From: Lytechinus pictus | Lineage: Eukaryota | Assembly: GCF_037042905.1 (NCBI RefSeq) | Contig: NC_087250.1 | Coordinates: forward strand, 4,652,001-4,716,000 | Direction: 5' to 3' | DNA: 64,000 nt | In this document: piece by piece, positions 2,975 to 63,673 of the stretch | Position numbering within the stretch: position 1 is the stretch's first letter | How the letters are laid out: every line of letters begins with the position of its first letter | Notes under the pieces: model-generated | What the model was told of the DNA's origin: nothing | Databases searched by the model: none | What the model saw: the letters and a program-made list of their open reading frames with translations, nothing else | Program-made: the position numbers and the translations under genes

Positions 2975-3004
2975 CAAGAAGACATTCTAATATTGTTTGT
3001 ATAG

Positions 3005-10477: not shown

Positions 10478-11063
10478 AGGAGAATGAAACTCTTGGAGCA
10501 AGTTAGCTTTTGTGAAAGCAAAAAAATCAAAGAATAAGATCAACAAAAGTTTGAGTAAAATAGGACGAGCAATAGAAGAGTTATGAGCATTTGAATGTCG
10601 AGATCACTAATGCTATGGAGATTCTCCCATTGGCAATGCGACCAAGATCTACGATGTCACAGATGAACAACTCTCCCCTTTTGGACACTGAAAATATACC
10701 CCAAAACATCTCTTTTTTCTCATTCTAATCATATGACAAACGATTCATCAATTATATAATGTTGTGAAACCTCTGCACTTGTCCTCTCATATAAAGAGAA
10801 CACCTCACCTTGTGATAGACTCTATAAAAGTGAGAATATAAGTGAAATAAGTACTAAAGTAATGAGGGAGTTGTACGTGTGTGACATCACAGATCTTGGT
10901 CGCATTGCCAATGGGAAGATCTACATGGCATTAGTGATCTCAATATTCAAATGCTCATAACTTTCTTATTATTCATTCAATCTTCCTCAAACTTTCAACA
11001 ATATGTTTCATTGATTTTTCTCTTTGATATGGATTCAGCTGGTTTCAAGGGTTTCATTCTCCT
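10478..11063. mobile_element. TTAA-TSD MITE with AGG termini (Kolobok-like)
   Basis: ttaa|aggagaatgaaac...gtttcattctcct|ttaa; the empty site atgttaagta is seen in other array units. Confidence 0.85.
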
Positions 11064-11098
11064 TTAAGTAAAACATTATTTGTTTTACGTTATTTTAG

Positions 11099-11345
11099 GA
11101 TAGATCTGTCATTGGTCACTTTCAACTGGTTTGTCACCTGTTTCTGTGATAACATCCCTGCCGAGACCATGCTACGGATCTGGGACACCTTCCTGTCGGA
11201 AGGGAACAAGGTCCTCTTCCGCTACTCGCTGGCAGCGTTCAAGTTCTTTGAAGAGGAGCTGCTGAAACAGAACGACTATCTGAGGATCTTTGCCTTCCTG
11301 CGTCGAATGCCGGAGATGTTGACGGATGTCCAGAGACTAACCCAG
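11099..11345 (+). CDS. TBC1D2B: TBC1D2B-like exon
   Basis: tag|IDLSLVTFNWFVTCFCDNIPAETMLRIWDTFLSEGNKVLFRY...RLTQ|gtatcc; contains the TBC RIWD motif. Confidence 0.92.
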
Positions 11346-11357
11346 GTATCCAAATGT

Positions 11358-34861: not shown

Positions 34862-34905
34862 TTAAATAAAATTAATGTCACCGCACCAATCTGCTCAACT
34901 TTTTT

Positions 34906-35600
34906 TTTTTTTTTTTGGAAAATTATTTAATAACAGAGTTAAACAATATAATTTCAAATTGCTGCATCGGATTTTGCCGTATAAAGAGAATTTAGTTCGA
35001 TGGAATATCACATCAGACATGACTTGTAACCATTGTAAACAAATTGAAACTCTAGATCATGTTTTGTTGCATTGTCCACATGTGAATTTATTTTGGCAAA
35101 AACTACGGTATTTCATTAAGATCCAGTTTAATGTGAATATTCAGATTAATGAGAAAACATTATTGATTGGCCACGATGTTGAAAATGAAAACATGGCTTT
35201 TCTTAATGTAATTTTGGTTTTCGCACAATATACGATTTATAGAGTCTATATGTTGGCTCAGTTCACTTCAAAAAAATTCAGCTATTTTTCTATGTTGTCA
35301 GATTTCAAGAGAGAATTAGTCATTAATTTAAGATTTCTTGAAAAGAGTAATAAGATAAAACTAACAGAAAAACAGTACAACGAAATCAAAAGCCTGTGAA
35401 ATGTGAAACTAATTGTATATATTGTTTGTGTTTGTTTATTGATTTCAATGTAAAAGAGTAACATGATAAAAATATCAGAAAAACAGTATATTGAAATCAA
35501 AAGGTTGTGAAATATGAAACTAATTGTATATATTGTATGTGTTTGATTATTGATTTTAATGTAATAAATACCTCTGATGAGGACAAAAAAAAAAAAAAAA
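34906..35600 (+). mobile_element. 5'-truncated L1/Tx1-type LINE (C-terminal zinc-binding region), polyA and TSD
   Basis: FKLLHRILP...CNHCKQIETLDHVLLHCPHVNLFW; polyA 35585-35600; aatctgctcaactttt on both sides. Confidence 0.85.
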
Positions 35601-36002: not shown

Positions 36003-37229
36003 ACGATTACAAATAATTGTTTTAATTTACAATAATCAATCATTTCATTTTAAAAAAACATCTGTTCATGAGCAATTTTGTTTCCTCTTCAATAATGAAG
36101 CTCTGCTCATTAGGTTGAATATTTCGAAAGAAACATTGTCACAGGAATTTAAAAAAATGTTACAATATAATGGAACGAGTAAATAAATACTGAATGATTT
36201 TTGAATTACCAAAATGCCTAGAAGTCCACCAAAACCAAATACAATCACCTTCGAACTTATTATTTTTCACCTTATTATTATCATGTTTTGATTGATAAGA
36301 TAAGTGGATAGCAAATAATGGAAATGACTATTCTCTGTAATTTCTTCCAGAATGTTCTTCCTATTAAACCTCGTTAATCTCAATGATTGTCTTCCTTGTT
36401 CTTGCTATTTATTCCTTTTCACTGACTATACTTGGAAAAAATAAGAACATGATAGACACTTCATTCATTGCCGAAATGAAACTGTAGTATCGCCCATATC
36501 ATACCTCTTTCAGTAACTCGCTGATCCGCAGTCCAGTCTCGGCCTCTCGGGCTACTTAAGTCGTTAAAAAAATGAGTTTATGAATGGCCCGAGCTAAAAA
36601 TAGCCCGCGCCAGGACCCGGGCTATTTTGAAGCTGCTTTTATTAGCACCAGAACGGCAATAGACTCGCGTGCCCGTGTTGTTTAATGGGTGATCGTAAAA
36701 AATAGTGCGGCTCTGCGAAAGTTACTGAGCGCAATTGTTACACAGACACTGTAAAAAATGAAGTGATATTTTAGCACTTAAAGTGCTTGTGTAGTGACTG
36801 CACTACGAGTGCTGATTTTCTAGTTCAAATTTAAACAGAGCATTTTACAGAGTATATGATAAATACAATTATATCTATATATATATAGTGTGATGATATA
36901 TATGTATATATATGCAGTCATAAATCAAATACAGTGATGTCAAACATGTGCTGCTCGTGTTAACACATGTCTCATGAATAATAATAATAATAATAATAGC
37001 GGTATATTTACCCAGGGTAGCCGCTTCAGTTCCGAAAACTGTTCTCCCAGCGGGCCCTGCTATTATTAATGAATATTGATTCAATTCCGATATTTCTGTA
37101 TGGTACATTGCCCTGTATTACGTTCGTTTAGAACTGATAACCTGGGCCCATTATTGTAATTGTTTCCCCTTTTTTATGAATAAAAGGTGATTTATAAAAA
37201 TCTGTAGAGCGCGTTATTATCCTCTTTTT

Positions 37230-37366
37230 TTACATCACGAGGGTGGGGGTTTCTTCGGTGGATTTACACGCAGAACCGCCTTGAGGTACGATTCGAAACT
37301 CGGAGGCTGTTCGACCAAGACTAGCAATCCATTCCCTGTTCATGTTCTCAGTCGTCATGTAGAGAT
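37230..37366 (-). CDS. PDZ + IL-1-like gene, terminal exon 7
   Basis: cag|(D)LYMTTENMNREWIASLGRTASEFRIVPQGGSACKSTEETPTLVM*; acceptor and phase are conserved in the paralogue at 63.6 kb. Confidence 0.8.
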
Positions 37367-40300
37367 CTGTGATGGGGTAAATGGACAAGATACGGTTACA
37401 CGGGCCTAATTACAACTGGCAGGCAAAAGATATTCATTCGAGCCAACCCATTCTCAATTTTTAAACATGATACTGATTGACACAAATGCATACGATTGAC
37501 AATCTAACACTGATTCTAGGGAGGGTACCTACTGAACTTCTTTTTTCCAAATTGGAAAGATGTATCACTACTTTGGAACTATTTTTTACTGGCGGAAGAA
37601 TTAGGGCCATTTTACTCTCTCAAGTGATAAATTGGATCCTGACAGGTGTAGTCTTCATAACTGCCGATTTATTTTTAAAATGAGCCGGTCGAGATACCCT
37701 TTTCTGGTCAGATATGGAATGTCTTACCATATATCCTGTCCACTGGTAGTAAACACTCAACCCGCGAATTTCCTCCTTATTTTTTATGATTTTTTTTTAA
37801 ATGCCACTTTAACACACGAGATCGCTATTTGGGTACGCTTCCCACCGCTCTATATTTACACACAACTTGAGTGTATTTTTTTTTCCAATATGAAACGGTA
37901 TGAAAGGATATTTATAAGGAATTAATTATCTTGACCGGAACGTCCCCGGTTGATCGGTAAACTGTAATAAAAAAAAATCCTCAAAAGAAGGTCATTACAG
38001 GCTCACACACGCACACTGAATCTGATATTCGGTTTTGCGCCATTGAACCCTGCAGTATATTTAGCGTTCCCGGGAATTGTCCCGTCTTGTAAAGTCAAAT
38101 GAGTTTAGCTGCAGCCAGTAGCGTACGTAGGATTTTCCAAAGGGGGGGGGGCAAATTCTTCCGCCCAAAAATTTGATAAGCAAAAAAAGGTTTTCAACCA
38201 CAAATAACGGATTTTGTACCAAAAAAGGTCTTCAAGTTCAATTATGGCTCGTCAGGGATCAGTTGTAACTCGTCAGGGGGGCAGACAATAATGAAGACAG
38301 TTTTTAGGAGAAACTGTGCTACAATAATGATAATAGAGGGGTTTTTTTTGCACCGCGACGCAGAACGCTTTCAGTAACACAGCAAATGTATTGTCAAATG
38401 TCCTTTGTGACAATTTAAAGAACAACCAAGTAGTCTTTGTGGAAAATTGGTAAATAAAATCAGCATGACCTGGAATCGGGACAAACGACATATTTGTAAT
38501 TTTTGTCGGCTCCAATATTTAGGACGAAACTCCTGTTCCGGTTCACCGATTTTCTTTTTTTTTTCGACAAAGTCCTCCCCAGCTAGTCTACAAATGTAGA
38601 CCCACATCTGCAGTGTGTGTACCACAACTGATTCAACGAGTCTGCATAGCAGACTAGGGCCCCGTTGTACAAAGAGTTACGATCGATCCGATCAATCCTA
38701 ACTCTATGGAAATCCATCAGTGTCATAATTTTTTCTACAGGAAATTTGCAAAATGTCCATTGTAATCAAAGGAGAACACTCCAAATTGTCAAGAAATCAA
38801 TTAATTTATGGATATGGATTCTTTAGAACTTTTTTTTAACAAACATGCATTTCATATGTTGACGTTGCTGGCTTTCCATAGTTAGACTGATTGGATCAAT
38901 CGTAACTCTTTGTACAACGGGGCCTATGTCTATTATGGCTGAAGATGTGAAATGGCTCGCTTCGATTGTCCTTTCAGGCTGGTGTGCTTCACAAACCAGC
39001 ATCAGCGTGCGCGCTGAGATCCCACCATATACGAACCTTTCAGAGTCTGCATAGCAGACTACTCCCCAGCTGTGCTTTGTCATTTGTCAGGCATTTTCAA
39101 TGTATTTACCCTGTTATTGAATCCTCCGTATGTCACTGAGCGAAAAAACCTTAATCTTAATAATAATAATAACCACTACACTTTAAAGCAGATACGAACC
39201 AATAGCGCCATCTAGAGTCCTCAACTATACTCATACCTTGCCAGTTTCCTTTCCCATAATGCTAGTGTAGTCTAGTAATATAGACCAACTTGAATGATAA
39301 CATGCTTATTAACTACTCAATAAATTTATACCGCAATAATTATGTTACCAAGTAGCAAAACAATTACTTTTCCTCTCAAAACATTTGTAATTATAGGTCC
39401 ATTTATCCTCTGTAGTATTAGTAGATATCTGAAAACGTATATTTGAAGACTATGTATTTATAACACACAGTCAATGAGAGACCACACACAGTTCAATCCA
39501 CCTTTAAGGAGAAACTGTGCTATATCATAATAATGATAATTGTTCTTTGAAGGAGAGGGAACATAAAACAAAGCAAAAATGGCACAACACATGCCCTAAG
39601 CTATATAGATCACTGCCTGGATATCCGACATTGATATTTGACACTGTTTTGAAAAATATTTTGAATATTTGATATGGGGGATGTATCACAAAGGTTTAGT
39701 ATGACTTAAGGCCACCGCACACCTTACGACTGTTTGCGATCCGATTTTGGAACAAATCGCATTTTGCTCATTTTCTGAAAATGTGAATGGAACATATCAT
39801 TTTATGTTAGGTTAAAATTAATTGAAAGAATACTAATATAACCATTTTGAAAGATTGCAAGCCTTTATTTTGGAGTAAAGGCCAAATTAGTTTCAAATCG
39901 TAGCCAATCGTACGACTGCTATGACGTCATTACGACTAGATATTAAATTTGCTTTTATTCTAAGAAGGATGATAGCATAGTCACAGATTTGAACAGAGGT
40001 ATTCGTACAATGATTTCAAACATTACGCAGTAAGATATTCCGTCTCAATATTAGCATCAAATTCTACTACGTTTTATTCCAAAATTGAGTCGTAGACCAA
40101 TTGTAAGGTGTGCGGTCGCCTTTAGGGTCGCACTTAAATGCCTAGTTGCGCGCGGTATAAAGTGAGATCATGCGAAGAGGACCTCCTACTGCTGCGTGAT
40201 GATCAATATACGATTGCCCGTTGCATATCATGTACACAGTAAAAACGCTGTTTAAGATTTTATAAAACGCTGTTTACTATAATTATGAAGCTTACAGTAT

Positions 40301-40634
40301 TTGTTTAACTGTTTAAACAATTATGTTTAATTTATTGAAGACTAGATATTGAAAATTAGACTTTGTTACTTAAGATTTAAACACTGGAAATAAGCTTTCG
40401 AGCTTTCGTGGGTCATCCTGTGCAAGCCTTTAGTTTTAATGCTACTGTATATATATTATGGTGACTTGCCAAATAAAATCAATCAATCAATCAATCTTGT
40501 TTAAACTGTTTTTATAAAATATAGTAATATAGTAAACAGCGTTGTATATTTTTTTTACTGTGTACGCGTCGGCATTTAAGTGCGACTTAAGTAAGTCATA
40601 CTTGAATCTTTGTGAAACAGCCTCATGGTCTTAC

Positions 40635-40752
40635 CGTCGTTAGTGTTGGCTGCCTTGATGACGGTTGAACCGGTAGGACGCAATGTCACGAAAAAGAACA
40701 TGTTATTCTGTGGTATCTGCGTACGGGGATCTCTCATCCAACGAGGAAACGC
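40635..40752 (-). CDS. PDZ + IL-1-like gene, exon 6
   Basis: Strong pyrimidine tract, cag|AFPRWMRDPRTQIPQNNMFFFVTLRPTGSTVIKAANTND|gtaaga; phase 0 to 1. Confidence 0.82.
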
Positions 40753-40799
40753 CTGACAAGAGAGATAGAGAGAAGGATTAGTGGAGACGGCTACGTATA

Positions 40800-40968
40800 T
40801 TTTATTTATTTATTTATTTATTCATATATTTATTCATTTATTCATTTATTCATTTAATTATTAATGTATTTATTCATTTATTTATTCATTCATTTATTTA
40901 TTTATTTATTCATTTATTTATTATTTATTTATTCATTCATTTATTCATTTATCTATTCATTTATCTAT

Positions 40969-41019
<51 letters not shown>

Positions 41020-41171
41020 TTCATATATTTATTTATTTATTTATTCATTTATTTATTTATTTATTAATTTATTTATTCATTTATTTATTCATTCATTTAT
41101 TTATTTATTTATTCATTTATTTATTATTTATTTATTCATTCATTTATTCATTTATCTATTTATTTATCTAT

Positions 41172-41210
<39 letters not shown>

Positions 41211-41223
41211 TCTATTTATTCAT

Positions 41224-41314
<91 letters not shown>

Positions 41315-41340
41315 TTCATTTATTTATTCATTCATTTATT
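40800..41340. repeat. (ATTT/ATTC)n microsatellite
   Basis: Direct reading. Confidence 0.95.
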
Positions 41341-42596
41341 CAAAAACAGGGAAGCCCATTCAACAAAGTGTTGGTCTCCCATGGGGCCCAATGACAGTGT
41401 ACATAACATAACATAACAATTATAACAAATTAATTTACATAGCAAAGAGGCATAAATAAATTAGTAAGTACATGTGAAGGAAATAAGGAAACATATAATC
41501 GACAATAAAAGCACAATGATTTAAAAAGCAGATGACGTGAAAGTAATAAGACGTGTATTATATACAATTACAATTAGCCAAAATCTGTCAAATTAAGAAA
41601 GTAAGCTGAAGTTGTGAGTCGAGGCTGTACAGTGTTTTACTTTAAAAATAACGGAAACCAGGATTCCCAGTTATATTTCTCAATATAGCCAAACGATTTA
41701 TAGTATTTCATTTTTCATTTACATCATCATAACATTTAGGTTTTCTTCTTTATTTTGATACCAACTATAATATTAATATTTAACGTCAGGACTAGCAAGA
41801 ACAGTTTGAAAATTCAATGTCAAAACCAAGTTGCGTAGGAAAAATGGGTCGAGGTTTGTTAAAATCTTTAGTTTTTTTTTTTTGAAAAAGTTTATTTCAT
41901 TAAAGATGGGAGTGGGTTCAGATTCACAAGTGAGTTTCTACGCAAATCGATTCCGACAAGCTTCCGTGTTCATTTGTATTCATCCAACGTCTGAACAGTT
42001 CACTTAGTAATTGGTCTCGAATCAAATTAGAGATTCCACTCTTACTATTGGTGTTTAATTTATTCATTTCATTTCTTCTTTATTTCACAATCGGACTAAA
42101 AAGTCAGGCTATGATAAAAGAATATTCAATTGTTATTAAATTATCTCTAAAGACACGTTTCGTATTCTTTTGGACACACTATACAATATGACAACCATGA
42201 GTGTAACTATTAAATAAGGAAAATTTGAGTTTGATGAATTTATGAAATATTGACATTTCATTTAACAAAAATACGCACAAGTAAAAAGATCAATGGAAAT
42301 TCGACAACCCCATAAACAGATTAAATTAAAAGCAAGCCATAGGAGGTATTAGACAGTGTGCTAGTTCGACCAACACAATGATGATGATGATGATGATGAA
42401 AATGATTATGACGACGAAGAAGATGATGATGATATGATGAAGATGATGATGGTGGTGATGATGATGATGATGGTGGTGATGATGATGATATGATGAAGAT
42501 GGTGATGATATGATGAATATGATGGTGGTGGTGATGATGATGATGATGATAATATGATGAAGATGATTATGGTGATGATGATGATGATGATGATGC

Positions 42597-42873
42597 GTGG
42601 AGCGTTGTGGCCCAGTGGATTAGTCTTCGGACTTTGAAACAGAGGGTCGTGGGTTCGAATCCCAGCCATGGCGTAATTTCCTTCAGCAAGAATCTGATCC
42701 ACAATGTGCTGCACTCAACCCAGGTGAGGTAAATGGGTACCGATAGGAAGTTATTCCTCAAGAGGCTGTGTGCGCTATGAACGCCTAGCTTAGCCAGGTA
42801 ATATAGGAGCGCCTTGAGCACCTAACAAGGTGGATATGTGCGCAATATAAATACCCTATATTATTATTATTAT
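42597..42873 (+). mobile_element. tRNA-derived SINE, family A, inserted in a (GAT)n tract
   Basis: Near-identical to 2696-2974. Confidence 0.85.
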
Positions 42874-43163
42874 ATGATGAAGATGGTGATGATATTATGA
42901 TTAAGATGATGGTGGTGGTGATGATGATGAAGATGATGATGGTGATGATGATGATGATGATGATGATGGTAATAATAAGATGGTGATGATAGTGATGATA
43001 ATAATGATAGTGATGATGATGATGGTGATGGTGGTGGTGATGACGATCACGATATATGGTGACTTTTTCGGCGTTGAAAGCGATGAATAATGGCAGTGGT
43101 GTTGCAAACATTTTCGATTATTATGACGACATCAAAGACAACCACGGAGGGCGATGAACTTAC

Positions 43164-43300
43164 TACCACATCAAGGGGGCCCGCGATGACACCCTCAATG
43201 CACATCGGTCTGCTGGATGACACGGGTTGGGAGATGGCGATTGGATTTCCAGGAGGGTTTCCTCCACCTACAACCTGGTAGTAGTTCAGGGTCACGTTTT
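43164..43300 (-). CDS. PDZ + IL-1-like gene, exon 5
   Basis: cag|NVTLNYYQVVGGGNPPGNPIAISQPVSSSRPMCIEGVIAGPLDVV|gtaagt; phase 1 to 0. Confidence 0.8.
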
Positions 43301-43820
43301 CTGTTGACAAAGTCACAAAGAAAAGAAAAGATGTACAGCAAAAACTGTGGTGTTAACCGATGTACATAGAGGACCACACCAGTTATTTTACACCGGTGTT
43401 AAATTGGTGGTGTTAGTTTTACACCTATAGGTGTTATTACAACACCTATGGTTGTTACATTTACACTCTTCGGTGTTATGTTCAATCTCTAGGGTGTTTC
43501 AGTTTCAGTTTTATTTTTTCTCATTTCCAACAAAACAATATACAAAATCCATCATAAATACATTTATAACAATTGAAATGTATAAAGAAACATGTAACAC
43601 AATATATTTATTTATTATGGCATCACCAATTTTTCCAAAGGGCAGATAGCTTTAGGGAACCTTGATTTAAGCTACGCCTACCATTGTTCTCTTCACCCAT
43701 TTCTTTCACAAAAGAGTTGCCAAAGCTTCACAATATATATATATATATATATATATAGGTAGGTAAGTATATAGTGATATACTGCAATATCTAATAGTGC
43801 TCGACTGTGTAGGAGCTGAG

Positions 43821-43972
43821 TATAAATAATTTATTGGTTGGATTGCTTAACTAAGCTAGTCGTACAGACTGTTTCACCCTAAGGCTCATCAGCGACCCCT
43901 GATGAGTCGCTGATGAGCCTTAGGGTGAAACAGTCTGTATGACTAGCTTAGTTAAGCAATCCAACCAATAAA

Positions 43973-43980
<8 letters not shown>
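43821..43980. ncRNA. Inverted pair of minimal hammerhead ribozymes (Penelope-like repeat)
   Basis: gtcg CTGATGA gcc ttag ggt GAAA cagtctg TA (c/t)gac on both strands. Confidence 0.7.
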
Positions 43981-44010
<30 letters not shown>

Positions 44011-44027
44011 TTGAGGCCGAAAGTTTA

Positions 44028-44770
<743 letters not shown>

Positions 44771-44993
44771 GTATATATGTATATGTAGTGATTCCCGACA
44801 GAGACATTTTTTCGGCATCACCAATTTTTCCAAAAGGGTCGATAGCTCTAGGGAACCTTGATTTAAGCATGGACCTATTAATAGGTCCATGATTTAAGCT
44901 ACGCCTACCATTGTTCTCTTCATCCATTTCTTTCACACAATATTTAAATAAAAGAGTTGCCAAAGCTGTAGTACATGTATAACTTCACACATA

Positions 44994-45025
<32 letters not shown>

Positions 45026-45046
45026 ACTCGCAAGTAATAAACTTAC

Positions 45047-45287
45047 GGCTGGTCGAAACGTACGTTGCCCGTGTTCTACCGATCTCTGTGAATCGATCCA
45101 GTCTCCTTTCAATGAGTTCAACTTGTGCCGACCTTCTGTATTGATAGGTCGGTGTCACGTCAAATGCAGTCTCGACCGGAAGTAATTCAATGAAAGAATT
45201 GTCCTCACTTCCGCTGTCCAACAGATGCCTTGAAATGGTTTCCACATTCGGTCGTCCATCTATCAACATGAAGCACAACAGAAGCTC
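45047..45287 (-). CDS. PDZ + IL-1-like gene, exon 4 (linker and start of trefoil); 5' boundary uncertain
   Basis: ELLLCFMLIDGRPNV...LLDSGSEDNSFIELLPVETAFDVTPTYQYRRSAQVELIERRLDRFTEIGRTRATYVSTS|gtaagt. The acceptor TAG has a poor pyrimidine tract. Confidence 0.68.
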
Positions 45288-46014
45288 CTATCCACATTTG
45301 TTTTCTTCATAAATTCGACTCGTCACATTAAATATTTGTAAATAGTTGTGGCACATATAATTTGTTTGTTTTTTTTTTTCTGTGTGTAATCGTTAGTTTT
45401 TAATTTTTAGTATTCTTTTATATTTATGTATGTATTACATATATTCATAGCTGTGACAACAGCTCAAGCATCTGCTTATATTGTCATACCACTGCATGTC
45501 TGCAACCTTGATATAATCAGTTATGTAAATGATCATAATTATACATTATTATAATGTAAAATTTAATGTATTCAATGTCTTGATGGTCATACTATGTACA
45601 TTGTCAAGACATGCAGATACGAATGAATGAATAAATAAATAATTAAATAAGACTAATGTGAGTCATATACTGTATCCTCAACAATAACTGACTATCTGAA
45701 TATAAAAACGGCCCAAGTCCAATTTTGGGTGAAATTGGGTTAAATATGGGGAATTTATCCTTATACAATGACTCATCTTGTGTATAAATGATAAATCTGA
45801 AATCATCTCAAAAACGCCTTCGCTTCAGGAGGAAAATCTGGTAGGAGTGTAAGAAAAGCCAAATTCCAACTCCAGGACTTGGACTTTTCTTACATCCATA
45901 TCATAGCGCCCTCTCTCATTACTTCTACTACTTACTACAGAATTCTACCATTTATATGAATGTAAGGGCCCGCCTACAAGGAAAGTGGATATTAATGTTC
46001 ATAAAAATGTACAC

Positions 46015-46617
46015 TTAAAGGGGAATCCAGCCTTGGCCATAAAATGTTGTGATGGGAAGGAGAAAAATAAATTAAACAGAATGGTGAAAGTTTGAAAGAA
46101 ATCCGACAAGCAATAAGAAAGTTATAGCTGCTTTAAAATTGAGATCACTAATACTATGTAGATTTCAAATTGGCAACTGGGTAAGTAAATTATGACAAGG
46201 GGCAAGGACAACTTTCCCATAGGCCATGTACTTTATTATCAGGGATTTGTGGTTTTCTTCTAAGTACCCATTCCCCTGGGGCAGTAATTTAAATATAACC
46301 CAGGTAGTATATTGTTTTATGTCCTCATGAAAGAAAAATATGATTTGAAATAAAACTTTTGGGAAAAATGACATTTTAGCCATAATATGTATTGGAGTAC
46401 ATGGAAGAGTAGTCCTTGCCTTACATCACTATGACATCCCATATGCGGCCAATTTGAAGTCTCCATGGGTATAGTGATTACCAATAATTACAACTTTAAG
46501 AAATTCATAACTTTCTTATTGTTTGTACAATATTATTCAAACTTTCACCTATCAACTTGTCTGATTTTTCTTTTCCTTATAAAAACAAGTTTTTATTTGG
46601 GTTGGATTCCCCTTTAA
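46015..46617. mobile_element. TTAA-TSD MITE, third family; copy at 50745-51346
   Basis: ttaaaggggaatccagcc...ggttggattcccctttaa; nested in an older element at about 45691-46786. Confidence 0.82.
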
Positions 46618-47899
46618 ATTTATTTCATGATGTTCTCTGATGTCTTTTGGCTAAATAGACTTTAATTGCCCAAATAAAAAGATTTTCTCGAAATGACCTC
46701 CAACAGAGGGTAAACGCCACCGCTGTTTAAAAAGATTTTCTCGAAATGACCTCCAACAGACTTGGGCCTTTTTATATTCATATACTCAATTGTCTAGCGT
46801 ATAATGTGGTTAAGACAAAAACAAAAACAAATGAGCATCAAAACATTTTAATTACTGGTTCTGTCTAATACCAGAGAAGTTCAACGCTCTTCAAATCTTC
46901 GGGTCAAATTAATACTAAAATTAGGAATGTTTGGTCACACTCAGTAAATGAAGTAACATAAATGTACCAAAAAAAATGATTATAAAACTTTATGAGTGCT
47001 ACATCTGTTATCAAAATGTTAACTCCATCATGTCCATGGGCGTAAATACATACTCTTGATATTTTCTGACTATGAGCGATATTATGACTGTTTAAAAAGT
47101 AATCGAGCTCAAATTAATACCGATTGTCTATTTTTTATCCCTCAGTTTTGGCTTGTGCAATTAAGACACCCATTTTGGCTATTTATAATTTCCATCCTTC
47201 GTAAAGGACACGAAACTGGACTTGAAGTCGTGAGGTCCTACACAACTTTTCGAACAGTTTATTTGAAACGCCTCTCTGTCTTCTACAATGGCGTAATGAC
47301 CCAAAACATTTGAGGGGGCTATAGATATGGCGTATCGGGGAAAACTTGTCAAAAAGTTGCGAGCGATCCAAAATTTCGATATTTTCAATACAATATCAAT
47401 TTTTCACCCTTCCTTATTTTTCTCGCCTGTTTTCTTTTCTGGGTCGTATTTCCTTTTCTCTTTTTTCGTCTCGGTTGTTTATTTTTGTTGGGGGGATGGG
47501 CAAGCGCACCAAGCCCCCCCCCCCTTCCCACATCTCTACGCCACTGGTCATATATTTATGAGAAAAAAACAAATATCACACCTTTTTCGTTGAGATGGAA
47601 AGCATATAACCACTTCTGCTCGTCTTGGCCCTCTTTCCGTTTGATAACCTACAATTCAAAAAAAGTTGAGCAAAACACTTTTTAGGGCTACAGTAGACTT
47701 AGGCCTTTCGGAACTCATATTTCGAGTCCTAATCCATTTGTCTCTCTAATTACTATTCTTAATTTAATTATTTATATTTGGGGGCAATTTTATGCCTCAA
47801 ATACAGAAAAAATGTTGATCATTAGAAATACTAGATATATCAATATTATAACTGCTTGTAAACTTAAAGTATGCATATATTACCATGCCCTTTCTTTTA

Positions 47900-48520
47900 T
47901 TATCAGATACAATACTACGTTCATTGACAATAAATGACATTTGACCTTGATCATGCGACCTAAGACTTGTCAGTGATACCTGATTACCCCTATATCCACA
48001 TTTTACAAACTATGTCTATAAACTTTGAAAGTTATGACAGCAATCTAATAATTACCTCCAAAATGGCCAAAGTTCAATAACCTTAAATGATCTTTGACTT
48101 TTGTCATGTGACCTGAAACTCGCATGAGATGTTCAGTGATACTTGATTACTGTATACACTTTCAGAGTTATGATGGTTATTCAAAAAATACCACCAACAT
48201 GGCCAAAATTCATTGACCTTTGACCTTGGTCATGTGACCTTAAGTTAGCACTTGTTCAGTGCTACTTGATTACTCTTACGTCCTTGTTTTATGAACTATA
48301 CCAATAAACTGTCAAAGTTATGATAGTAATTCAACAAATGCCCCCAACTTGGCCAAAGTTCATTGACCTTAGTTATGTGACCTGAAACTCGCACAGGATA
48401 TCTAGTGATACTTGATTACTCTTATGGCCAAGTTTCATGAATCAGATTCATAAACTTTCACAGTTATGATGGTAATTCCATAGATAACCTCAACTTGGCA
48501 AAAGTTCATATAAAGTTCAA
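47900..48520 (-). mobile_element. Degraded relative of the Helentron-like internal repeats
   Basis: Repeated tgaccttggtcatgtgacc / cagtgatacttgattac, reverse complement of the 6329 element core. Confidence 0.7.
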
Positions 48521-48734
48521 ATGAAAATAAATGAATACATATTATCAACAGAGTGAGAACAAATAAAATAAATTAATTCTATTTTTTTCATCTTTCAATA
48601 CCTATTGAATATAATAAATCAACATCAGTAATTAAAAAATAGGTACAGATACAAAATTACAAATCATGTAAAAAAAGACAATCAAATACACAGGAGTGAA
48701 ATATCATTGAAGTTAGGTATTCAGATCAATATTT

Positions 48735-49663
48735 GCGATAGATTGTAATTATCCAGAAAATATCTTCGACTTTATTTATCCCTATACTATCTTCATTTCA
48801 TATAATTTCTTGTACATGTCATTTAGTCCCCTTTTTCGGTGTCGCTCGTAGAAGCTTTTTTTTTTTTTTTGGGGGGGGGGGGTGGAGAGGTGGGGTGGTG
48901 CACCCAAGACCTACACCCCCCCCCCCACCTGTGTTTGCCTTATATTATTAGAATTAGGCATTGGAATCAATTTTGGCAACAGATTGTAATTATCCAGAAA
49001 ATATCTTTGAATTTATTCAACCCTTTACCATCTTCATTTCATATCATTTCTTGTACATGTCATTTAGTCCCCCTTGTCGGTGTCGCTCGTAGAAGCTTTT
49101 TTTTGGGGGGGGGGGTGGAGAGGTGGGGTGGTGCACCCAAGCCCACCCCCCCCCCCCACTTGCTCGCCAGTGTTTGCCTTACATTATTAGAATTAGGCAT
49201 TGAAATCAATTTTGGCGACAGATTGTAATTATCCAGAAAATATCTTCGAATTTATTCAACCCTTTACCATCTTCATTTCATATCATTTCTTGTACATGTA
49301 ATTTAGTCCCCCTTGTCGGTGTCGCTCGTAGAAACTTTTTTTTTTGGGGGGGGGGGGTGGAGAGGTGGGGTGGTGCACCCAAGCCCACAATCCCCCCCAC
49401 CCACACTTGCTCGCCAGTGTTTGCCTTACATTATTAGAATTAGGCATTGAAATCAATTTTGGCGACAGATCGTAATTATCTAGAAAATATCTTCGAATTT
49501 ATTTAACCCTATACCATCTTCATTTCATATCATTTCTTCTAACATTTAGTTCCCTTTCTCGGTGTCGTTCGTAGAAGCTTTTTTTTTGGGGGGGGGGGGG
49601 GGAGGGTGGGGTGATGCACCCAAGCCCCCCTCCCCTCCCCATGCTCGCCTGTGTTTGCCTTAC
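48735..49663 (-). repeat. Four ~245-bp tandem units anchored on the exon-3 donor site
   Basis: gtgtttgcctta(c/t) at about 48931, 49169, 49417, 49651. Confidence 0.88.
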
Positions 49664-49772
49664 CAATCCAATACGAGTACCGATATCTGCCAAACACTCT
49701 AGGACTGCTAACTGGATTGTATTGGTCAAGTCAGTCTCAATGTTGTTGATACTCAACAATTCATCATGATTT
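49664..49772 (-). CDS. PDZ + IL-1-like gene, exon 3 (PDZ C-half)
   Basis: cag|NHDELLSINNIETDLTNTIQLAVLECLADIGTRIGL|gtaagg; PDZ D.IL.IN motif; phase 2 to 0. Confidence 0.82.
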
Positions 49773-52027
49773 CTGTAGCAAAGAAAACAAAATGAAACGT
49801 TTTTTTTTATAGAGCTGAAAATAAAACTAACGGCAATAATAATTACAATAATACTAATAATAACAGCAATAATGATTATAATAATTAAAATAATAATAAC
49901 GATAATAATAATAGCAATAATGAGTATAATGATTATAATTTTAACTCTAATAATAAAAGCAAAGATGATAATAATAATAATGTGCTTATATATACAGTGC
50001 TATTCAAGTCTCTAAGTGTTAACCAGAAATTATAATAGTGAGAATAATAAAAGTAATAATAATAATAGTAGCGATAATGATTATAATACTACTATTACTA
50101 CTACTACTAATAATAATAATAATAATAGCAAATTTTTATAAAGCGCTTTTCCCAGAATGGCCCAAAGCGCGTTACAGCATATTATTACCCCGGTCATTGG
50201 ATTCATTTCAATCAAGCACGAAAAGTGCACAATTTCCACTCCCTGGGGAGCATTCCTTGCATTCGTCGCAGCCACATTATGGCGCTGGCAAAATCAAACG
50301 TACAATATCTTTCGCATCCTACCGGGTACCCATTTAGCACCTGGGTCGAGAGTGGCAAAGTGTGGATTAACGCCTTGCCAAAGGACGCTAGACCGCGGTG
50401 GGATTCGAACACACGACCCTCTGTTTACAAGGCGAGAGTCAGAACCACTACACCACGGCTCTTCCACTAATAATGTGCTTACATACAGTACTCGACAATA
50501 ATTTTGCATAATTACCCTGGCTTGAGCAGGTTTAGCAGAGCAGCTGTTACGCGCACTTCATTTCAAGGAATCAATTCCTGCCATGTACCATTTTACCTCA
50601 ACTGGGGGCCGTTTCATAAATCTGTTCGTAAGTTAAGAGCGACTTTAAGAACGACTGGTGAACCTTTCTTACGTGCTGAATAATCGTCAATGAACATTTA
50701 ATTGTGAATATCATTTACCACAAGAAATTGATCACTAGCCGTTCTTAAAGAGGAATCCAGCCTTGGCCATAAAATGTTGTGTTGGGAAGGAGAAAAATAA
50801 ATTAAACAGAATGGTGAAAGTTTGAAAGAAATCAGACAAGCAATAAGAAAGTAAATAGCTGCTTTAAAATTGAGATCACTAATACAACGTAGATTTCAAA
50901 TTGGCAACTGGGTAAGTAAATTATGACAAGGGGCAAGGACAACTTTCCCATAGGCCATGTACTTTATTATGAGGGATTTGTGGTTTTCTCCTAAGTACCC
51001 ATTCCCCTGGGACAGTAATTTAAATATAACCCAGGTAGTATATTATTTCATGTCCTCATGAATGAAAAATATAATTTGAAATAAAACTTTTGGGAAAAAT
51101 GACATTTTAGCCATAATGTATTGGAGTACATGGAAGAGTAGTCCTTGCCTTACATCACTATGACATCCCATATGCGGCCACTTTGAAGTCTCCATGGGTA
51201 TAGTGATTACCAATATTTACAACTTTTAAAAATTCATAACTTTCTTGTTGTTTGTCCAATATTGTTCAAACTTTCACCTATCAACTTGTCTAATTTTTCT
51301 TTTCCTTATAAAAACAAGTTTTTATTTGGGTTGGATTCTCCTTTAAAGTTGCTCTTAACTTACGAACAGCTTAATAAAACACCCACCTGGGTTGAGTGCA
51401 TGCAGGCTGTGCTGCACAGGGTGAATCAATTTCTTGCGAAGGAAATAAGACGCCATGGCTGGGATTCGAACCCAGGATCCTCTGTTTCAAAGACCGATGA
51501 CTAATTCACTGGGCCTCGATTATACATGAGTTCTTTTACCAACCCTTCGTCCATAAATCCATATAAAGTGTTCTTTATCCGAAACGCACTTTTCTGTTTT
51601 GTGCCCTAGGGTATACCCAGTTCAATGTGCCTTTTGAATACCGCATAACATTCCACAAAATATTTTCTCGTTGTATGGAAACAATGAAAGCTATTGTCAT
51701 GAATCAATGACTATCTTTATGGTTATAGATGCCTCGATTGTATGTCTTTTCAATGATTTATTGGCCTACCCTTATTGTGTTGTATTCATGCATGAAAACC
51801 AGTATTCTTTCTGCTCCGAAAATGTAGAATTAGTTGGTATTTTCTAATTAAAGGTAAATTTCAGTTTTGGGAACGATCTCAAAATGACTTTTTACAGAAT
51901 TTAATATAATGATCACCAAAGTGTCTGTTTGTATGAATAAAAAATATGTGCCAAAGGATTCTGGAAGAAATTGTGTAATTGCTGAGAAATAAGCAAAATA
52001 AGCGCGGATTCGGTCACTGATCCGTCG

Positions 52028-53259
52028 CACAGTGGGCCAGAATGAGTTGAAAGTGCGCCAAAATTATATTCCGTGTTAGATTTTTACTTTAACATGTTGA
52101 CTATGGGTAATTTTGGGCGTAGAATCGACTGAACATAATCTAAAGCCGATTTGACGTCACCTTGATACCAAATTTTGATTGGCTACTTAAAACATATCTG
52201 TGAAGACAAATTACGCTAGACAATGTGTAGTATATAAATTTTGTGTTATGTGCTACTTTAAGATTGACCAGAGTGAATGTTGGTTTAGGCTTCTCACATG
52301 CCTAAAAAGTGTGTATGAGATCCTGAAAATAATTTTATAGCATCAAAATGATCATTAATTAGATTTATAAAAAGAAAAAATAAAATCTGAAAAATATTAA
52401 CCGTGCTTTATGAAGCTGTGTTTACTTGTGTAAAATGCAGTGTATTTAGCACCAAGAATGTATCACTATGAGGAGGGTTTTTGGCTGAAATTATTCTACA
52501 AGTAAGTTTTAACTCTGGAAGAGTTGTGAGTATAGCCCTTATTTGCGTTAGCAACCTTTATTTTGTTTACTTTATTTTGCCCGGAATTCATGTCATTTTC
52601 ATGGAATGGAAGGGGAATCGTCCTCGCCCTGCAAAAGCGAGCGGCAATTAATGTACACCCATACGGTGCGCTACGATGACTGCGCGGTATAAAATTACCG
52701 TTTTTGAACAGGTTTTGGGGGTGTTGTGTCAAGTAAAATTGGCTCTCACATGGCAACGGGCAAAAACGGGCAGCTGAATTTGGTATCGTCTTAAAGCTTA
52801 GACATCAGAAAAAATGATGATGATAAAAATTAGACGGAAATCCACGGAAATCCAAACGTTTCTAATGTAAATGCAAAAAACATGGATTTTCAGCCTATTT
52901 CGAGGAATAATCATACTATAAACCTCCTGAAAGGTGTCTTTTATCTACTTTGAGCCCTTTCACACACAAAAAAGAATATATCAGGATTATGTTGGAGCCA
53001 TTTCAGATTCCTGCATGAAAAACCTCCTGGGAAATTGTCTGTTTTTAACTAGGTTGTCATATACGCGACATTTCGCAAAATGTCACATTTTACGATTTGA
53101 GGTTGGAAATTAACAACCTTTATGCAAATTTCGGAATGAAATATTTTGCTGAAGTATTCTTCAAAGTGTTGTCTTTCAGCTGGGCATAACAAAAAATAAA
53201 AATCAGAAATTGCCCAAAATGACTTTTGGCGCACTTTTGTTTCGCCCCGGCCCACTGTG
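52028..53259. mobile_element. Non-autonomous Transib/RAG-like transposon
   Basis: cgtcg|CACAGTGggcc...ggccCACTGTG|cgtcg; bipartite TIR; nested in an older element at about 51848-53480. Confidence 0.85.
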
Positions 53260-55681
53260 CGTCGGGTCTTTATTCCAGCAAGAATGATACACTGTCCCAC
53301 GTGTGCCTATCTGTGTTCAGTGTGATCGTTTTTTTTAGCTAGATATTATGATTTCACAAAGTTCAGTTTATGTAACTGTACAAGATCTAGATCCACGATG
53401 ATATATCAATACTTTACCTTGGTTTTACAGACTTTCTCATGAAATCAATGTTTTACTGCAACTACGTTCATTTAGCTTTGAATGTAAGACATGTCTGCAA
53501 TAAAGTAATTCAGTATCTATAATGAATTTCCCTTTAAAAGTGCCATGAAATTCATTTGCAAAGTACTTTTTTTTCAATTTGATTAATGTGAGGATTGACA
53601 TTAAAAAAAAATAAATTCTTATGTTAATTGAATTTAAAAGGTATTGCAACTAACGAATTCTACTGCAATTCCTGAGGATATTAGCTTTATGGACCGTGAA
53701 TACATTCGAAGTAGTCATGACATTCATTGGCGGAAATAATATTTCATATCATTATGATATCCTTTGATTAAATCCAAGCGTAGACATAAACCACGGAAAG
53801 ATGTTATCACATTGTTTGAGAGAATATGTTCTTTCAGAGCCCAATAAAAGACTTTCGTTCATGACAGAATTTCTCCATCAATTGTGATTTTTTATTTATT
53901 TATTTATTTTTTGGTTTAGGTTTAAAGTATTTCTCATTCAAAATGTCATTCCATGTTTGTACGAGCGTAAGTCGTCGTGCATAGTTAAAGGAGAATGAAA
54001 CCTTTGGAACAAAATAGCTTGTGTGAAAACAGAAAATTGAAAGAAACAGATCAACGAAAGTCTGAGTAAAATCGAACAAATAATGAGAAAGATATGAGCA
54101 TTTGAAATTTTCGATCACTAATGCTATGGATATCCTCAAATTGGCAATGCGACAAAGATGTGTGATGTCACTTGTGAACAATTACTCTCCCCATTACTTT
54201 AGTATGTATTTCACTTAAATTGCCTTTTTTATCACATCTATCAGTAGATCAGTGTTCTTTCTATTGGAGGGCATGTAATACAGATTTTTGAAAAATACAT
54301 CATGGATAAAAAGTTTGTATCACCATTTAAGAAAAAGCAAAGAGACATTTTGAGGGTATTTTATGGTCCATCAAAGGGAAAGTTGTTCACATGTGACATC
54401 ACACATCCTTGTCACATTGCCAATGGGAGGATCTCCATAGCATTAGTGATTGCTATATTCAAATGCTCATAAATTTCTCATTATTTGTCCGATTTTTCTC
54501 AAACTTTCTTTGTTCTTATTCTTCGATTTTTCTGTTTCGACACACCCCTACTTGTTCCAAAGGTTTCATTCCCCTTTGAGATATGGGCCTATTTCGAAAT
54601 TATGGGAAGGGTCAGAGGGGAAGGGCTTATGCGATTTGAACAGGGGCGGCGATCTTGGGGGGCTGGGGGCACAGTACCCCCCCCCCCCACACTTTTTGAA
54701 GCACTGAAAAAGTGCCCTTTTAACGCAAGAAAAATGACCCCTTGCGAACGTGTTCTGTGCCCCTTTCACCTGAGAAGGACCCGTTTTATGTCTTCTTGTA
54801 AGTGCCCTTTCTCGCATCAGTGCCCCTTTTTACCGCACAAAAGTGCGGCAAAGAAGTCCTGTGCCCCTTTCACCTGAGGAGGACTTGTTTTGTGTGTCAA
54901 CGAGTGCTACTTTGCCTTCTCATATAGGTGCCCGTTCTTTATAATCAGATAAGTTGTCCTGAAAAACACATTTTCCGTGCCCGATGTGCGCCCGGTTTCT
55001 CTATTTAGCGCCGTTCTGCTCCCTTCTGCAAGTGCATAATAAATGAAAAAACTTGTAAAAAATAATCCTACGTGCCTTAAGTATCATGAGTCATGTGAAT
55101 GGGGTAGATGGGTGGGGCAGGGGGTAGTTGCCACCCCCCCCCCCGAAATTTTGAAAACTCACATTTTTTTTACTGCAGATTTTCACAAAATTCACCAAAA
55201 GTATACAAAAAATCATTCAATTTCACTTAACAAAATGCGAAAGCACCTATATGATAAACTCGGTCGCTTCACTCCCTCGGTTTTAAGCTTTTTTTTCCAA
55301 ATGGTTTACACGTGCTGCCCCCAGCGAAATTGTTCTGCATACGGCCATGTTTAATATAGCGCCCTTTTTGAAAGAAACGGTGCCCTTTTTTCCCTGTGTG
55401 CCCCCCCACTTTCAAATTCGCTCCGCCGCCCTTGGATTTGAACTTGAATTGAACCAAAGATGCGAAATGGCAAGTTGATCTGAAGGAAAAGAAAAATTTG
55501 GATAAAATCGAACGAGGCAATAAGACTCTCCCACATCTAGCGGCAAAAAAATTGAATACAACAGACATTCAATTCAGTTTGTACTGTGTAGGATTCCTCG
55601 CATCGTTCCATGAAGAATATTCATGAGTTCTTTTTTCTTTTTTTTTGGCCTTGTTTTGTTTAGTTTTGTTTGGTTGCTTAC

Positions 55682-55800
55682 CTTAGTCCGACCTCATATG
55701 CCAATCCGGAGCCATCGATATCCCTGATCACGTGACGACAATCATGAGAGTGAAGGCGAGCTCCAAAGTAAGTGACGGCGTAGGGTTTGTCGGTGACGTA
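55682..55800 (-). CDS. PDZ + IL-1-like gene, exon 2 (PDZ N-half)
   Basis: cag|YVTDKPYAVTYFGARLHSHDCRHVIRDIDGSGLAYEVGL(R)|gtaagc; PDZ FGxxL...G.A...GL pattern. Confidence 0.82.
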
Positions 55801-57503
55801 CTGTACAAAAATATTCCTAATATTCGGAAGCTGAGTGTAGATTGAATTTTCAAAAATGTGAATTAAAAACTATACATAAAGATTTACAAAGTTATAAAAA
55901 AAATATTAAGTAGAAAAATATATCGATATGTATATTCCTAATAATATGAATTAAGCTGCATACATATGAATATATATAACATTGAGCAGATAATGTTATC
56001 AAAAATATTAAATAATAAGATGTATTTAACATTATTATGTATATATACGTATAATATTGTGCAGTTAAAACCATTGAAGATATTACAAATATCAAATTAT
56101 TATATGTATATGTTTATACTGTGCATATCAAATAAAAGTTTACACTTTGAAAATGTCCTTGTAATTATAAACAGGGGCGTGGTTACTGGGGGCGGGGGGC
56201 ACGTGTCCCCATGCCCCCCCCCCCAGAAATAAAAATTGGCGGAGCAAAACAAAAGAAGAAAAGGGAGAAATAAAAAAAAATGAAAGATAGAAAGAAAAAG
56301 AGACGAGGAAAGATTTGAATCAATAGAAAAAAAATCAGACAAGCATAATGCTGAAAATTTCATCAAAATCGAATGTAAAATAAGAAAGTTAATTGAAATT
56401 TTTAAGTTTTGCTTAGTTTTCAGAAATGGTTACATGCACAATATTTAGTCACAAGTAAATTAAAGAATTGATGATGTCCCTCACTCACCATTTCTTTTGT
56501 TATCGGTTTGAATTATACAATATTTCAATTTTTACCGATTTGGCAATAAGGACCAACTTGACTGAACCATAAAATATTAAATAATGGTAATTTTACATGT
56601 TCAGGGAGAAACTTTGTTTCACAGGACAATGAGGACAAATTTAAAATATTCTATATTTCATATATTAAAATAAAAGGAAATAGTGAGTGAGTGATTGCAT
56701 TTAACTGTTTGGTGAAATTAAGCGAAACTTAAAAATGTCATAGCTTTCTTTTTTTTACATTCGATTTTGATGAAATTTTCAGTGTTATGCTTGTCGGATA
56801 TTTCTCCTTTTATTCCAATCAACTTTTTGTTGGGGTGGACTTGTTCCTTACATAAGCACATAAGATTAAGAAATAAGAAATTAACATTTTCATAAATTAC
56901 TAATAACTAAATTGGCCCTTTTTCAAAATGGAATATCGGCAAGTTTCATCTCACGCTTAGGAATAATTGGAAGATATTCATCATTTTTATATGATGACAA
57001 ACTGTCCTTAGAATGTCCCGGTCCTTGGTCAAAATAATAAAAATATCAGCTCGCGCTTCGCGCTCGCATCTTTTATAAAGTGTGATCCCCTCCACTTAGA
57101 AATTTTCCTACACAGTGCTTGAAATAGTGCTTAAAGATATTTAAAACATTTAGTTCAGAGTTAGGGTTTTCGATCCATATTTCGGATTGAGGGCTGGGTT
57201 CACTTCTCCCCGGCCCGGCACCACATTCCTCTTGAAAATAGGAATTTTACGTTATTTGATTAGGCTCACTCCTGTCAAGTTAAGTAAACGAAAAGCCTTG
57301 AAAGTGTAACATTGCACGCCATCTTCTTAATCGTTGTCCCTCTTTTCGTGAAGTGAAATCATATGCCCTCATCTACATTATATAACACCAATCAGTACCT
57401 GATGGGTGTATATAGAAATAGATGAAATAGTTATGAAATAACTCTGTTGACGTGCCTAATTAAAACATTAAATTTTGTGTGTCTTAATTACCCCGGATCT
57501 TAC

Positions 57504-57758
57504 CCGATGTTCGTCATCATTAAGTTCATCTGGTGATTCCTGCGGTGAAGCGGTGTTTACCGCCGCGGTTCCTTGCCCTCCAACCGCTTCCTTCTCTACC
57601 GCCCGCTTCACGCGTGTTTCTTCTGGGCTCGCCCCATCACTTACGCCAACGTCGCGTTGGACTTGGCCTTCCGTTACCGGTGATCCTTCTGCGGTAACCC
57701 TACCCGTTCCTCGGCTTTTAGAGGCTGAAGCCATCCCTTTTGAAGCGTGTATTCCCAT
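57504..57758 (-). CDS. PDZ + IL-1-like gene, coding exon 1 (MGIHASK..., low-complexity N-terminus)
   Basis: ATG with an upstream in-frame stop; ends DDEHR|gtaaga in phase 0; GC-rich coding-like composition. Confidence 0.7.
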
Positions 57759-63548: not shown

Positions 63549-63673
63549 TCACGAGGGTGGGGGTTTCTTCGGTGGATTTACACGCAGAATCGCCTTGAGG
63601 TCCTGTACGATTCGAAACTCGGAGGCTGTTCGACCAAGACTAGCAATCGATTCCACGTCAGTCATGTAGAGAT
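63549..63673 (-). CDS. Terminal exon of a tandem paralogue of the PDZ + IL-1-like gene (rest lies beyond the window)
   Basis: cag|(D)LYMTDVESIASLGRTASEFRIVQDLKAILRVNPPKKPPPS*; near-identical DNA to 37230-37366 plus flanks. Confidence 0.75.

Follow-up and report, generated by a model that had tools for sequence, protein, structure and literature searches.

The window analysed in this study is a 64,000-nt stretch of the genome of Lytechinus pictus, a genetically tractable sea urchin (C6:4652001-4716000 of an 812-Mb assembly; no N; G+C 34.8%), and it carries on its minus strand a spliced gene, LOC129263531, that encodes a PDZ domain followed by a C-terminal domain predicted to fold like interleukin-1 (IL-1). 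A scan over boundary variants places eight coding exons between 57758 and 37230, with GT-AG at all seven introns, and the resulting translation corresponds without a mismatch to the NCBI 'uncharacterized protein LOC129263531 [Lytechinus pictus]' (P0001, 394 amino acids [aa]). LOC129263531 is clearly an unlisted member of a published family, IL-1anc, whose proteins combine an N-terminal PDZ domain with a C-terminal IL-1 trefoil, are mostly leaderless, and are found throughout Eumetazoa (Fontenla-Iglesias et al., Nat Ecol Evol 2026, PMC13736523). The coding exons of the gene are as follows.

57504..57758, minus strand: coding exon 1, aa 1-85, with the ATG at 57758-57756; MGIHASK and a disordered region; next intron phase 0.
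55682..55830, minus strand: coding exon 2, aa 86-135; N-terminal half of the PDZ domain with the FGARL loop; next intron phase 2.
49664..49772, minus strand: coding exon 3, aa 135-171; C-terminal half of the PDZ domain, where the SHANK3 PDZ domain is aligned by the family profile; next intron phase 0.
47582..47648, minus strand: coding exon 4 (67 nt), aa 172-194; final PDZ strand and first hairpin strand (VIKRKEGQDEQKWLYAFHLNEK); next intron phase 1.
45047..45259, minus strand: coding exon 5, aa 194-265; second hairpin strand, flexible linker (~208-227), and first trefoil strands; next intron phase 1.
43164..43300, minus strand: coding exon 6, aa 265-310; trefoil strands; next intron phase 0.
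40635..40752, minus strand: coding exon 7, aa 311-350; trefoil strands, with IKA at the (F/L)ES position; next intron phase 1.
37230..37366, minus strand: coding exon 8, aa 350-394 and the TAA stop; final trefoil strands, then a disordered tail.

The exon 1 ATG has an in-frame stop 13 codons 5' of it, and candidate polyadenylation signals (AATAAA/ATTAAA) are found 543-816 nt 3' of the LOC129263531 stop codon. The initial annotation of this DNA, which was made from the letters alone, had described a gene of seven exons, and this observation is partly confirmed: the spliced gene is real, AG...GT flanks every one of the seven proposed minus-strand stretches, splicing them together gives an in-frame sequence of 1116 nt (371 aa), and five of the seven exons are exact, but two acceptors were wrong and one exon was missed. 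Specifically, the acceptor of exon 2 is at 55830 rather than at 55800, so that LPNIRNIFVQ, which forms the first PDZ strand, had been lost; the acceptor that had been placed at 45287 is at 45259, and 28 nt of intron had been read as ELLLCFMLI; and the 67-nt exon at 47648-47582 had been overlooked. These errors cancel by coincidence (30 nt in the one case and 67-28 = 39 nt in the other), and the frame was thus kept and the model looked clean.

Several lines of evidence bear on the corrected exons. A tblastn search of P0001 against the window yielded an additional block of 100% identity at 47648-47583, which corresponds to P0001 residues 172-193 in exon 4, as well as block lengths that differ from the seven-exon model at two other exons; the translation of the fourth exon as proposed initially matched three echinoid proteins, the best of them P0001. 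The corrected segments carry residues that are invariant in nine of nine homologues (I92, V94, Q95 and Y96; V172, W184, L185, A187, F188, H189, L190 and E192), and they are contiguous in P0012, a 388-aa homologue; since the contig that encodes P0012 is only 1367 nt long, it has no introns and is transcript-derived. The invariant residues and the contiguity in P0012 therefore support the corrected segments independently of the NCBI model.

PDZ domain, hairpin and C-terminal trefoil

AlphaFold2, run with a 20-sequence alignment, produced a model with a mean predicted local distance difference test (pLDDT) score of 75.2 and a predicted template modelling (pTM) score of 0.69; 202 residues score 90 or higher, and values below 50 occur only at residues 1-85, 213-215, and 380-394. 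Residues 89-177 show the PDZ-type order of strands and helices (b-b-b-a-b-a-b), and the PDZ domain spans residues ~88-177. When the 20-sequence family profile was run against all PDB sequences, it matched DLG4 (E 9.1e-10) and SHANK3 (E 5.1e-9; 58 aligned positions, from beta3 to beta6); 329 PDB chains were matched at E<=10, and the best 60 of these are nearly all PDZ-bearing. The profile matches to solved PDZ domains and the strand and helix order of the model both bear out the PDZ domain that the initial annotation had read from the sequence.

A long conserved beta-hairpin (residues 180-207) directly follows the PDZ domain, and half of it is encoded by the previously overlooked exon 4. This hairpin (window positions 45171-45259 and 47582-47624, minus strand) is the most conserved stretch of the family alignment, with W184, L185, A187, F188, H189, L190, E192, R196, and P197 invariant in nine of nine homologues, and it is recognisable in listed IL-1anc proteins too. 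The protein's own C-terminus (LVM) was considered as a ligand of the PDZ domain and rejected, as the tail is unconserved among homologues and disordered in the model.

Residues 228-380 form an all-beta domain in the AlphaFold2 model, and every one of the motifs that the initial annotation had quoted as IL-1-like strands falls within a predicted beta strand. A Foldseek search (3Di + amino acids) against the PDB gave 35 hits at E<=1e-3, and ranks 1-40 are all IL-18, IL-1beta, or IL-1alpha (human, mouse, chicken), with target-normalised template modelling (TM) scores of 0.65-0.78; the first structure from outside the IL-1 family is a ryanodine-receptor trefoil at rank 41 (TM 0.41), and FGF, ricin, and fascin do not appear in the Foldseek hit listing. 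In a second fold search, the IL-1 family again ranks best, with lectin-type modules (14.6, 14.2, and 14.0), FGF18 (13.7), and fascin (12.7) close behind. IL-1 family structures align over 127-139 residues in this second search as compared to 107-130 for lectins, FGFs, and other non-cytokine trefoils, the exception being one FGF8b row that spans both domains (133). The predicted fold is therefore without doubt a beta-trefoil, of the 12-strand type, and IL-1 is its best match by two methods, with a modest margin in the second; the nearest solved folds of the modelled trefoil are IL-1alpha, IL-18, and IL-1beta, and neither FGFs nor ricin-type lectins matched it better than IL-1. Because the margin in the second search is modest, common descent with vertebrate IL-1 is not proven by fold alone.

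These scores bear on the alternative that the C-terminal domain is a ricin-type or CBM13-like carbohydrate-binding trefoil, or another non-cytokine trefoil, whose IL-1 likeness arose by convergence, so that 'IL-1anc' would be a misnomer. The second search brings lectin-type modules close to the IL-1 family; nevertheless, we regard this alternative as extremely unlikely, given that only IL-1 family chains occupy Foldseek ranks 1-40, that non-cytokine trefoils align over fewer residues (apart from the FGF8b row), that the Q-x-W repeat which is the ricin-type signature is not visible in residues 228-380, and that the protein is leaderless and presumably cytosolic whereas lectins are secreted. Intron phasing that is reported to be conserved between IL-1anc and human IL-1 genes (PMC13736523) also argues against convergence. 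Overall, the initial interpretation of LOC129263531 as a PDZ protein with an IL-1-like trefoil, and as a relative of ancestral IL-1, is supported.

Membership of the IL-1anc family and genomic surroundings

The reports of PDZ-bearing ancestral IL-1 proteins that the initial annotation had mentioned do exist, as a 2025 preprint and as PMC13736523. The combination of a PDZ domain and an IL-1 trefoil is therefore already known in kind, and what is new is the window gene together with a clade that is missing from the published urchin list. The question of invertebrate IL-1 is long-standing but was answered in print in 2025-2026; LOC129263531 thus does not open it. The published list contains five IL-1anc genes in Strongylocentrotus purpuratus and five in L. 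pictus (LOC129278821, LOC129278820, LOC129260727, LOC129260728, and LOC129279149) (PMC13736523).

An exhaustive hmmsearch with a 9-sequence profile recovered 24 proteins at E<=1e-3, including four listed IL-1anc proteins, the identities of which were confirmed by accession and LOC id.

P0015: XP_054754655.1, LOC129260728, which is LpicIL-1.4; E 2.8e-25.
P0020: LOC119723835, which is PminIL-1.3; E 2.7e-15.
P0027: LOC110982596, which is AplaIL-1.6; E 8e-7.
P0029: LOC119719369, which is PminIL-1.7; E 7.3e-5.

A word-indexed homologue search with the 9-sequence alignment returned 10 hits, which were close relatives only and included no listed IL-1anc protein. By BLASTP, P0001 matches LpicIL-1.4 with an E value of 2e-23 and 24% identity over 333 aa across both domains. 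An exact gene model for LpicIL-1.4 in the same genome has seven exons on C20 with intron phases 2,0,1,1,0,1, and, beyond the intron that follows its additional first exon, the window gene shows the same series; four of the six intron positions coincide exactly in the alignment, and the remaining two agree to within 1-3 columns, beside gaps. With regard to the published record, the LOC ids of the window gene, its paralogue, and their L. variegatus and S. purpuratus relatives, as well as three sequence words, have no occurrence in the main text or Table S2 of PMC13736523, and a literature search found no paper naming LOC129263531 or the LOC ids of its five S. purpuratus relatives (LOC100892317, LOC105445920, LOC100893893, LOC100889353, and LOC105437773), which are other loci than the listed ones.

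A maximum-likelihood tree of 18 rows, from which fragments, truncated models, and the chimeric P0011 were left out, places the window gene in a clade of ten sequences with support of 96/95 (three from L. pictus, two from L. variegatus, four from S. purpuratus, and one transcript), none of which is in Table S2 of PMC13736523. The neighbours of this clade are the LpicIL-1.4/LvarIL-1.3 clade and a clade from Diadema, and the three sea-star IL-1anc rows separate from all of the urchin rows (100/99); because a number of long branches were flagged, the deeper order of the tree is unsure. As judged from the sequences, the unlisted clade appears to comprise at least three loci in L. pictus, three in L. 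variegatus, and five in S. purpuratus.

The L. pictus genes of this clade include a tandem pair, as a paralogue of the window gene, LOC135154474 (P0003, 303 aa), lies upstream in head-to-tail orientation. An exact 8-exon GT-AG model places it at C6:4740404-4715549, with intron phases as in the window gene; the PDZ exons of the two genes share 96-100% identity, whereas the trefoil of the paralogue has diverged further, with a stretch of 11 residues missing. The published urchin list is therefore incomplete, as a supported ten-sequence clade, represented in L. pictus by a tandem pair and by a second cluster ~1.1 Mb away, stands outside Table S2; it follows that 'five IL-1anc genes' per urchin, and synteny arguments built on such counts, need revisiting. 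The tandem paralogue and other features in and around the window are listed below.

63549..63673, minus strand: last coding exon of LOC135154474 (tblastn, 97.6% identity); the rest of this gene lies beyond the window end.
C6:4765759-4766049, minus strand: 156-aa open frame that shares 79% identity with residues 1-87 of the window protein and lies ~25 kb upstream of the paralogue's annotated first exon; a candidate for an unannotated first exon (MG type) of LOC135154474 or for part of a third copy.
C6:5785598-5861963, plus strand: second cluster of weaker exon matches (E 2.8e-9 to 3e-4), ~1.1 Mb away on the same contig and probably representing the genes LOC129263514-16.
40782-41411, plus strand: stop-to-stop frame of 209 aa within intron 6, with no Pfam match.
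34866-35396, plus strand: retroelement fragment, a 177-aa frame with zf-RVT (E 3e-9), ~1.8 kb downstream of the LOC129263531 stop codon.
2991-3230 and 11028-11357, plus strand: two exons of a RabGAP-TBC gene (PF00566, E 5.6e-8 and 2e-14), downstream of LOC129263531 and on the opposite strand.

An unspecified 'GTPase-activating protein' is a syntenic neighbour of IL-1anc in hexacorals (PMC13736523). A Pfam scan of the 107 window open reading frames of at least 75 aa, which short exons would escape, recovered just the RabGAP-TBC gene and the retroelement fragment, and detected none of the synteny markers named in PMC13736523 (ESD, EIF2A, GCC2, and IL-1R), nor any immunoglobulin (Ig) or TIR hit; urchin IL-1 genes are described as not linked to IL-1R genes (PMC13736523).

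N-terminus, selection and a possible mode of action

Consistent with the initial annotation, LOC129263531 encodes no signal peptide, as the 15-residue Kyte-Doolittle average peaks at -0.09 within the first 60 aa, and hydropathy reveals no transmembrane-like segment in P0001. The protein instead begins with a disordered arm (residues 1-85), the first residues of which, MGIHASK (window positions 57738-57758, minus strand, residues 1-7), fit the PROSITE N-myristoylation pattern. This pattern fits 18 of the 34 collected relatives longer than 150 aa, among them six of the ten in the window gene's clade (in the remaining four, the first exon is truncated or an alternative one), as well as proteins of both Diadema species, PminIL-1.7, and an Acanthaster isoform; beyond the MGxxxS motif, the arm shows little conservation. 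PminIL-1.8 and 1.9 also begin with MG (Table S2 of PMC13736523), and the word 'myristoyl' has no occurrence in the main text of that article. At the other end of the PDZ-hairpin unit, the flexible linker (~208-227) holds three aspartates (HLLD208, GSED213, and TAFD227).

The conserved N-terminal MGxxxS motif suggests N-myristoylation and membrane tethering. Tentatively, and with more doubt than confidence, we propose that the unlisted clade, with its MG-x3-S-K start, represents an N-myristoylated, membrane-tethered pro-IL-1, in which the lipid anchor and the PDZ domain would together hold the trefoil at the inner face of the membrane until the Asp linker is cleaved. If true, this would amount to an ancestral lipid-anchored route to release or surface display of a leaderless IL-1, reminiscent of membrane-associated IL-1alpha, and the presence of the motif in Diadema, in sea stars (PminIL-1.7 to 1.9 and the Acanthaster isoform), and in amphioxus-type N-termini would mark it as an old family feature that is absent from the discussion in PMC13736523.

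Taken together, LOC129263531 is quite likely a leaderless 394-aa protein with a PDZ-hairpin-linker-IL-1-trefoil order, that is, an IL-1anc paralogue in an unlisted urchin clade, which would act through a pro-form mechanism by analogy with better studied proteins. The architecture and fold, the homology to listed IL-1anc proteins, the common intron phases, and the missing signal peptide are direct properties of the gene and its modelled product; the mechanism is drawn from relatives. As in the family members that have been studied and in mammalian pro-IL-1, the protein would be synthesized in the cytosol as a pro-form and might be retained there or at membranes through its N-terminal arm and PDZ domain, possibly with the help of N-myristoylation at Gly2. 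An immune stimulus could then lead to release of the trefoil without a signal peptide, perhaps after a protease cut at one of the linker aspartates (D208, D213, or D227), and the released trefoil may act on an Ig-TIR receptor. Among the urchin proteins studied previously, transcription of SpurIL-1.2 and 1.5 is immune-induced, and SpurIL-1.3 is cleaved by a caspase upstream of the trefoil, at DEPD184 (PMC13736523).

A number of observations weigh against this interpretation. In Pfam searches, full-length P0001 gives PDZ hits below threshold (PDZ_6, E 0.017, 15.3 bits as compared to a cut-off of 27; PDZ, E 0.046); the null result for the single exons of the initial model (no family at E<=10 for any of the seven) is uninformative because exon pieces are too short. 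The Pfam IL1 family (PF00340) was not hit at E<=10 by P0001, P0002, P0003, or the seven exon translations, and no IL-1 chain is found among the best 60 of the 329 PDB sequence-profile hits; sequence methods likewise fail to link IL-1anc to the IL-1 profile (PMC13736523). At the (F/L)ES position, LOC129263531 has IKA; however, this motif of strand 9, described as 'often' or 'partially' conserved and used as a search aid (PMC13736523), is not strict, and since listed members also depart from it (LSN in LpicIL-1.4 and LQS in AplaIL-1.6, as compared to LES in PminIL-1.7 and FES in PminIL-1.3), IKA is not disqualifying. The ratio of non-synonymous to synonymous substitution rates (dN/dS) of the trefoil in comparison with the tandem paralogue is nearly neutral at 0.81 (15 synonymous and 40 non-synonymous differences). 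None of the 20 sequencing runs that share words with window positions 36300-46299 (carrying 0.10-0.21 of the words, with their kinds guessed) is on record as RNA. In addition, caspase cleavage was seen for only one of the tested urchin and lamprey proteins, and the functional data in PMC13736523 all come from clades other than that of the window gene. Finally, a PDZ domain and a lipid anchor fit a purely intracellular scaffold equally well.

This last point leads to a reading in which LOC129263531 belongs to the same family by descent but functions as an intracellular, membrane-associated scaffold or adaptor that is never released as a cytokine; its lipid-anchored arm and PDZ domain would bind the C-terminal tail of a partner, and the trefoil would serve as a protein-binding module, like that of intracellular FGF-homologous factors. 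We consider this rather unlikely, as both fold searches place IL-1 family chains ahead of FGFs and as a fast-evolving trefoil would be expected of a ligand engaged in an arms race between host and pathogen or with its receptor. Moreover, mammalian IL-1alpha and IL-1beta likewise have no leader and reside in the cytosol until they are released, and relatives within the family are induced by infection (PMC13736523).

Selection on the tandem pair is uneven, with a dN/dS of 0.33 for the PDZ domain plus hairpin and of 0.63 overall, at a synonymous divergence (dS) of 0.128; the value for the trefoil is compatible with a fast-evolving ligand as well as with relaxed constraint. The low dS and the overall dN/dS, along with the loss of 11 trefoil residues in P0003, the lack of a run on record as RNA for window positions 36300-46299, and the finding that several S. 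purpuratus paralogues are undetectable in unchallenged tissues (PMC13736523), could indicate that LOC129263531 arose by a recent tandem duplication and is now decaying or silent, with its reading frame intact only through youth and its NCBI model a functionless prediction. We judge this very unlikely; all eight exons are open with canonical splice pairs at seven of seven introns, the window gene does not have the deletion seen in its paralogue, a counterpart in L. variegatus shares 88% identity over the stretch covered by its truncated model, a transcript-derived homologue (P0012) exists, and the full architecture is retained in S. purpuratus homologues (42-48% identity), together with the conserved trefoil motifs PMC.EG, GPL.VV.FP, QNN.FF, and KAANT.

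The main value of recognising LOC129263531 as an unlisted IL-1anc paralogue lies in correcting the urchin IL-1anc census and in pointing to possible lipid anchoring. The myristoylation-type N-terminus, the constrained PDZ domain and hairpin, and the fast-evolving trefoil combine into a testable idea of how a leaderless PDZ-IL-1 protein may be held and released.

Comparison with known systems

Canonical PDZ scaffolds (SHANK, DLG4/PSD-95, and Scribble) match the family profile over beta3 to beta6 (E 9.1e-10 to 1e-6). In LOC129263531, an F-G-A loop stands at the place of the carboxylate-binding loop, and, unlike these scaffolds, the protein has one divergent PDZ domain that is fused to a trefoil. 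With the vertebrate IL-1 superfamily (IL-1alpha, IL-1beta, IL-18, IL-33, IL-36, IL-37, and IL-1Ra), identity is 9-17% and there is no sequence-profile match; furthermore, vertebrate IL-1 has an IL-1 propeptide, whereas LOC129263531 has a PDZ domain as its pro-region. The teleost nIL-1F (lumpfish 'novel'; PMC7144542) is described as a PDZ-containing IL-1 in PMC13736523.

Closer comparisons are found among urchins. SpurIL-1.1 to SpurIL-1.5, the source of the immune induction, localisation, and caspase data, have architecture and phylum in common with the window gene; however, none of the five is among the 24 proteins that the profile found at E<=1e-3, and these proteins are longer (~450-530 aa), none of them starts with MG, and some carry nuclear localisation signals (PMC13736523). 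LpicIL-1.4, the nearest listed IL-1anc protein, has, like LOC129263531, an N-terminal PDZ domain, a C-terminal IL-1-like trefoil, no signal peptide, a hairpin between PDZ domain and trefoil, and the same intron phases; it differs in that it is located on C20, lacks the extra first exon, and starts with MANSFRG, whereas the window gene is located on C6 and encodes a disordered arm of 85 aa that starts with MGIHASK.

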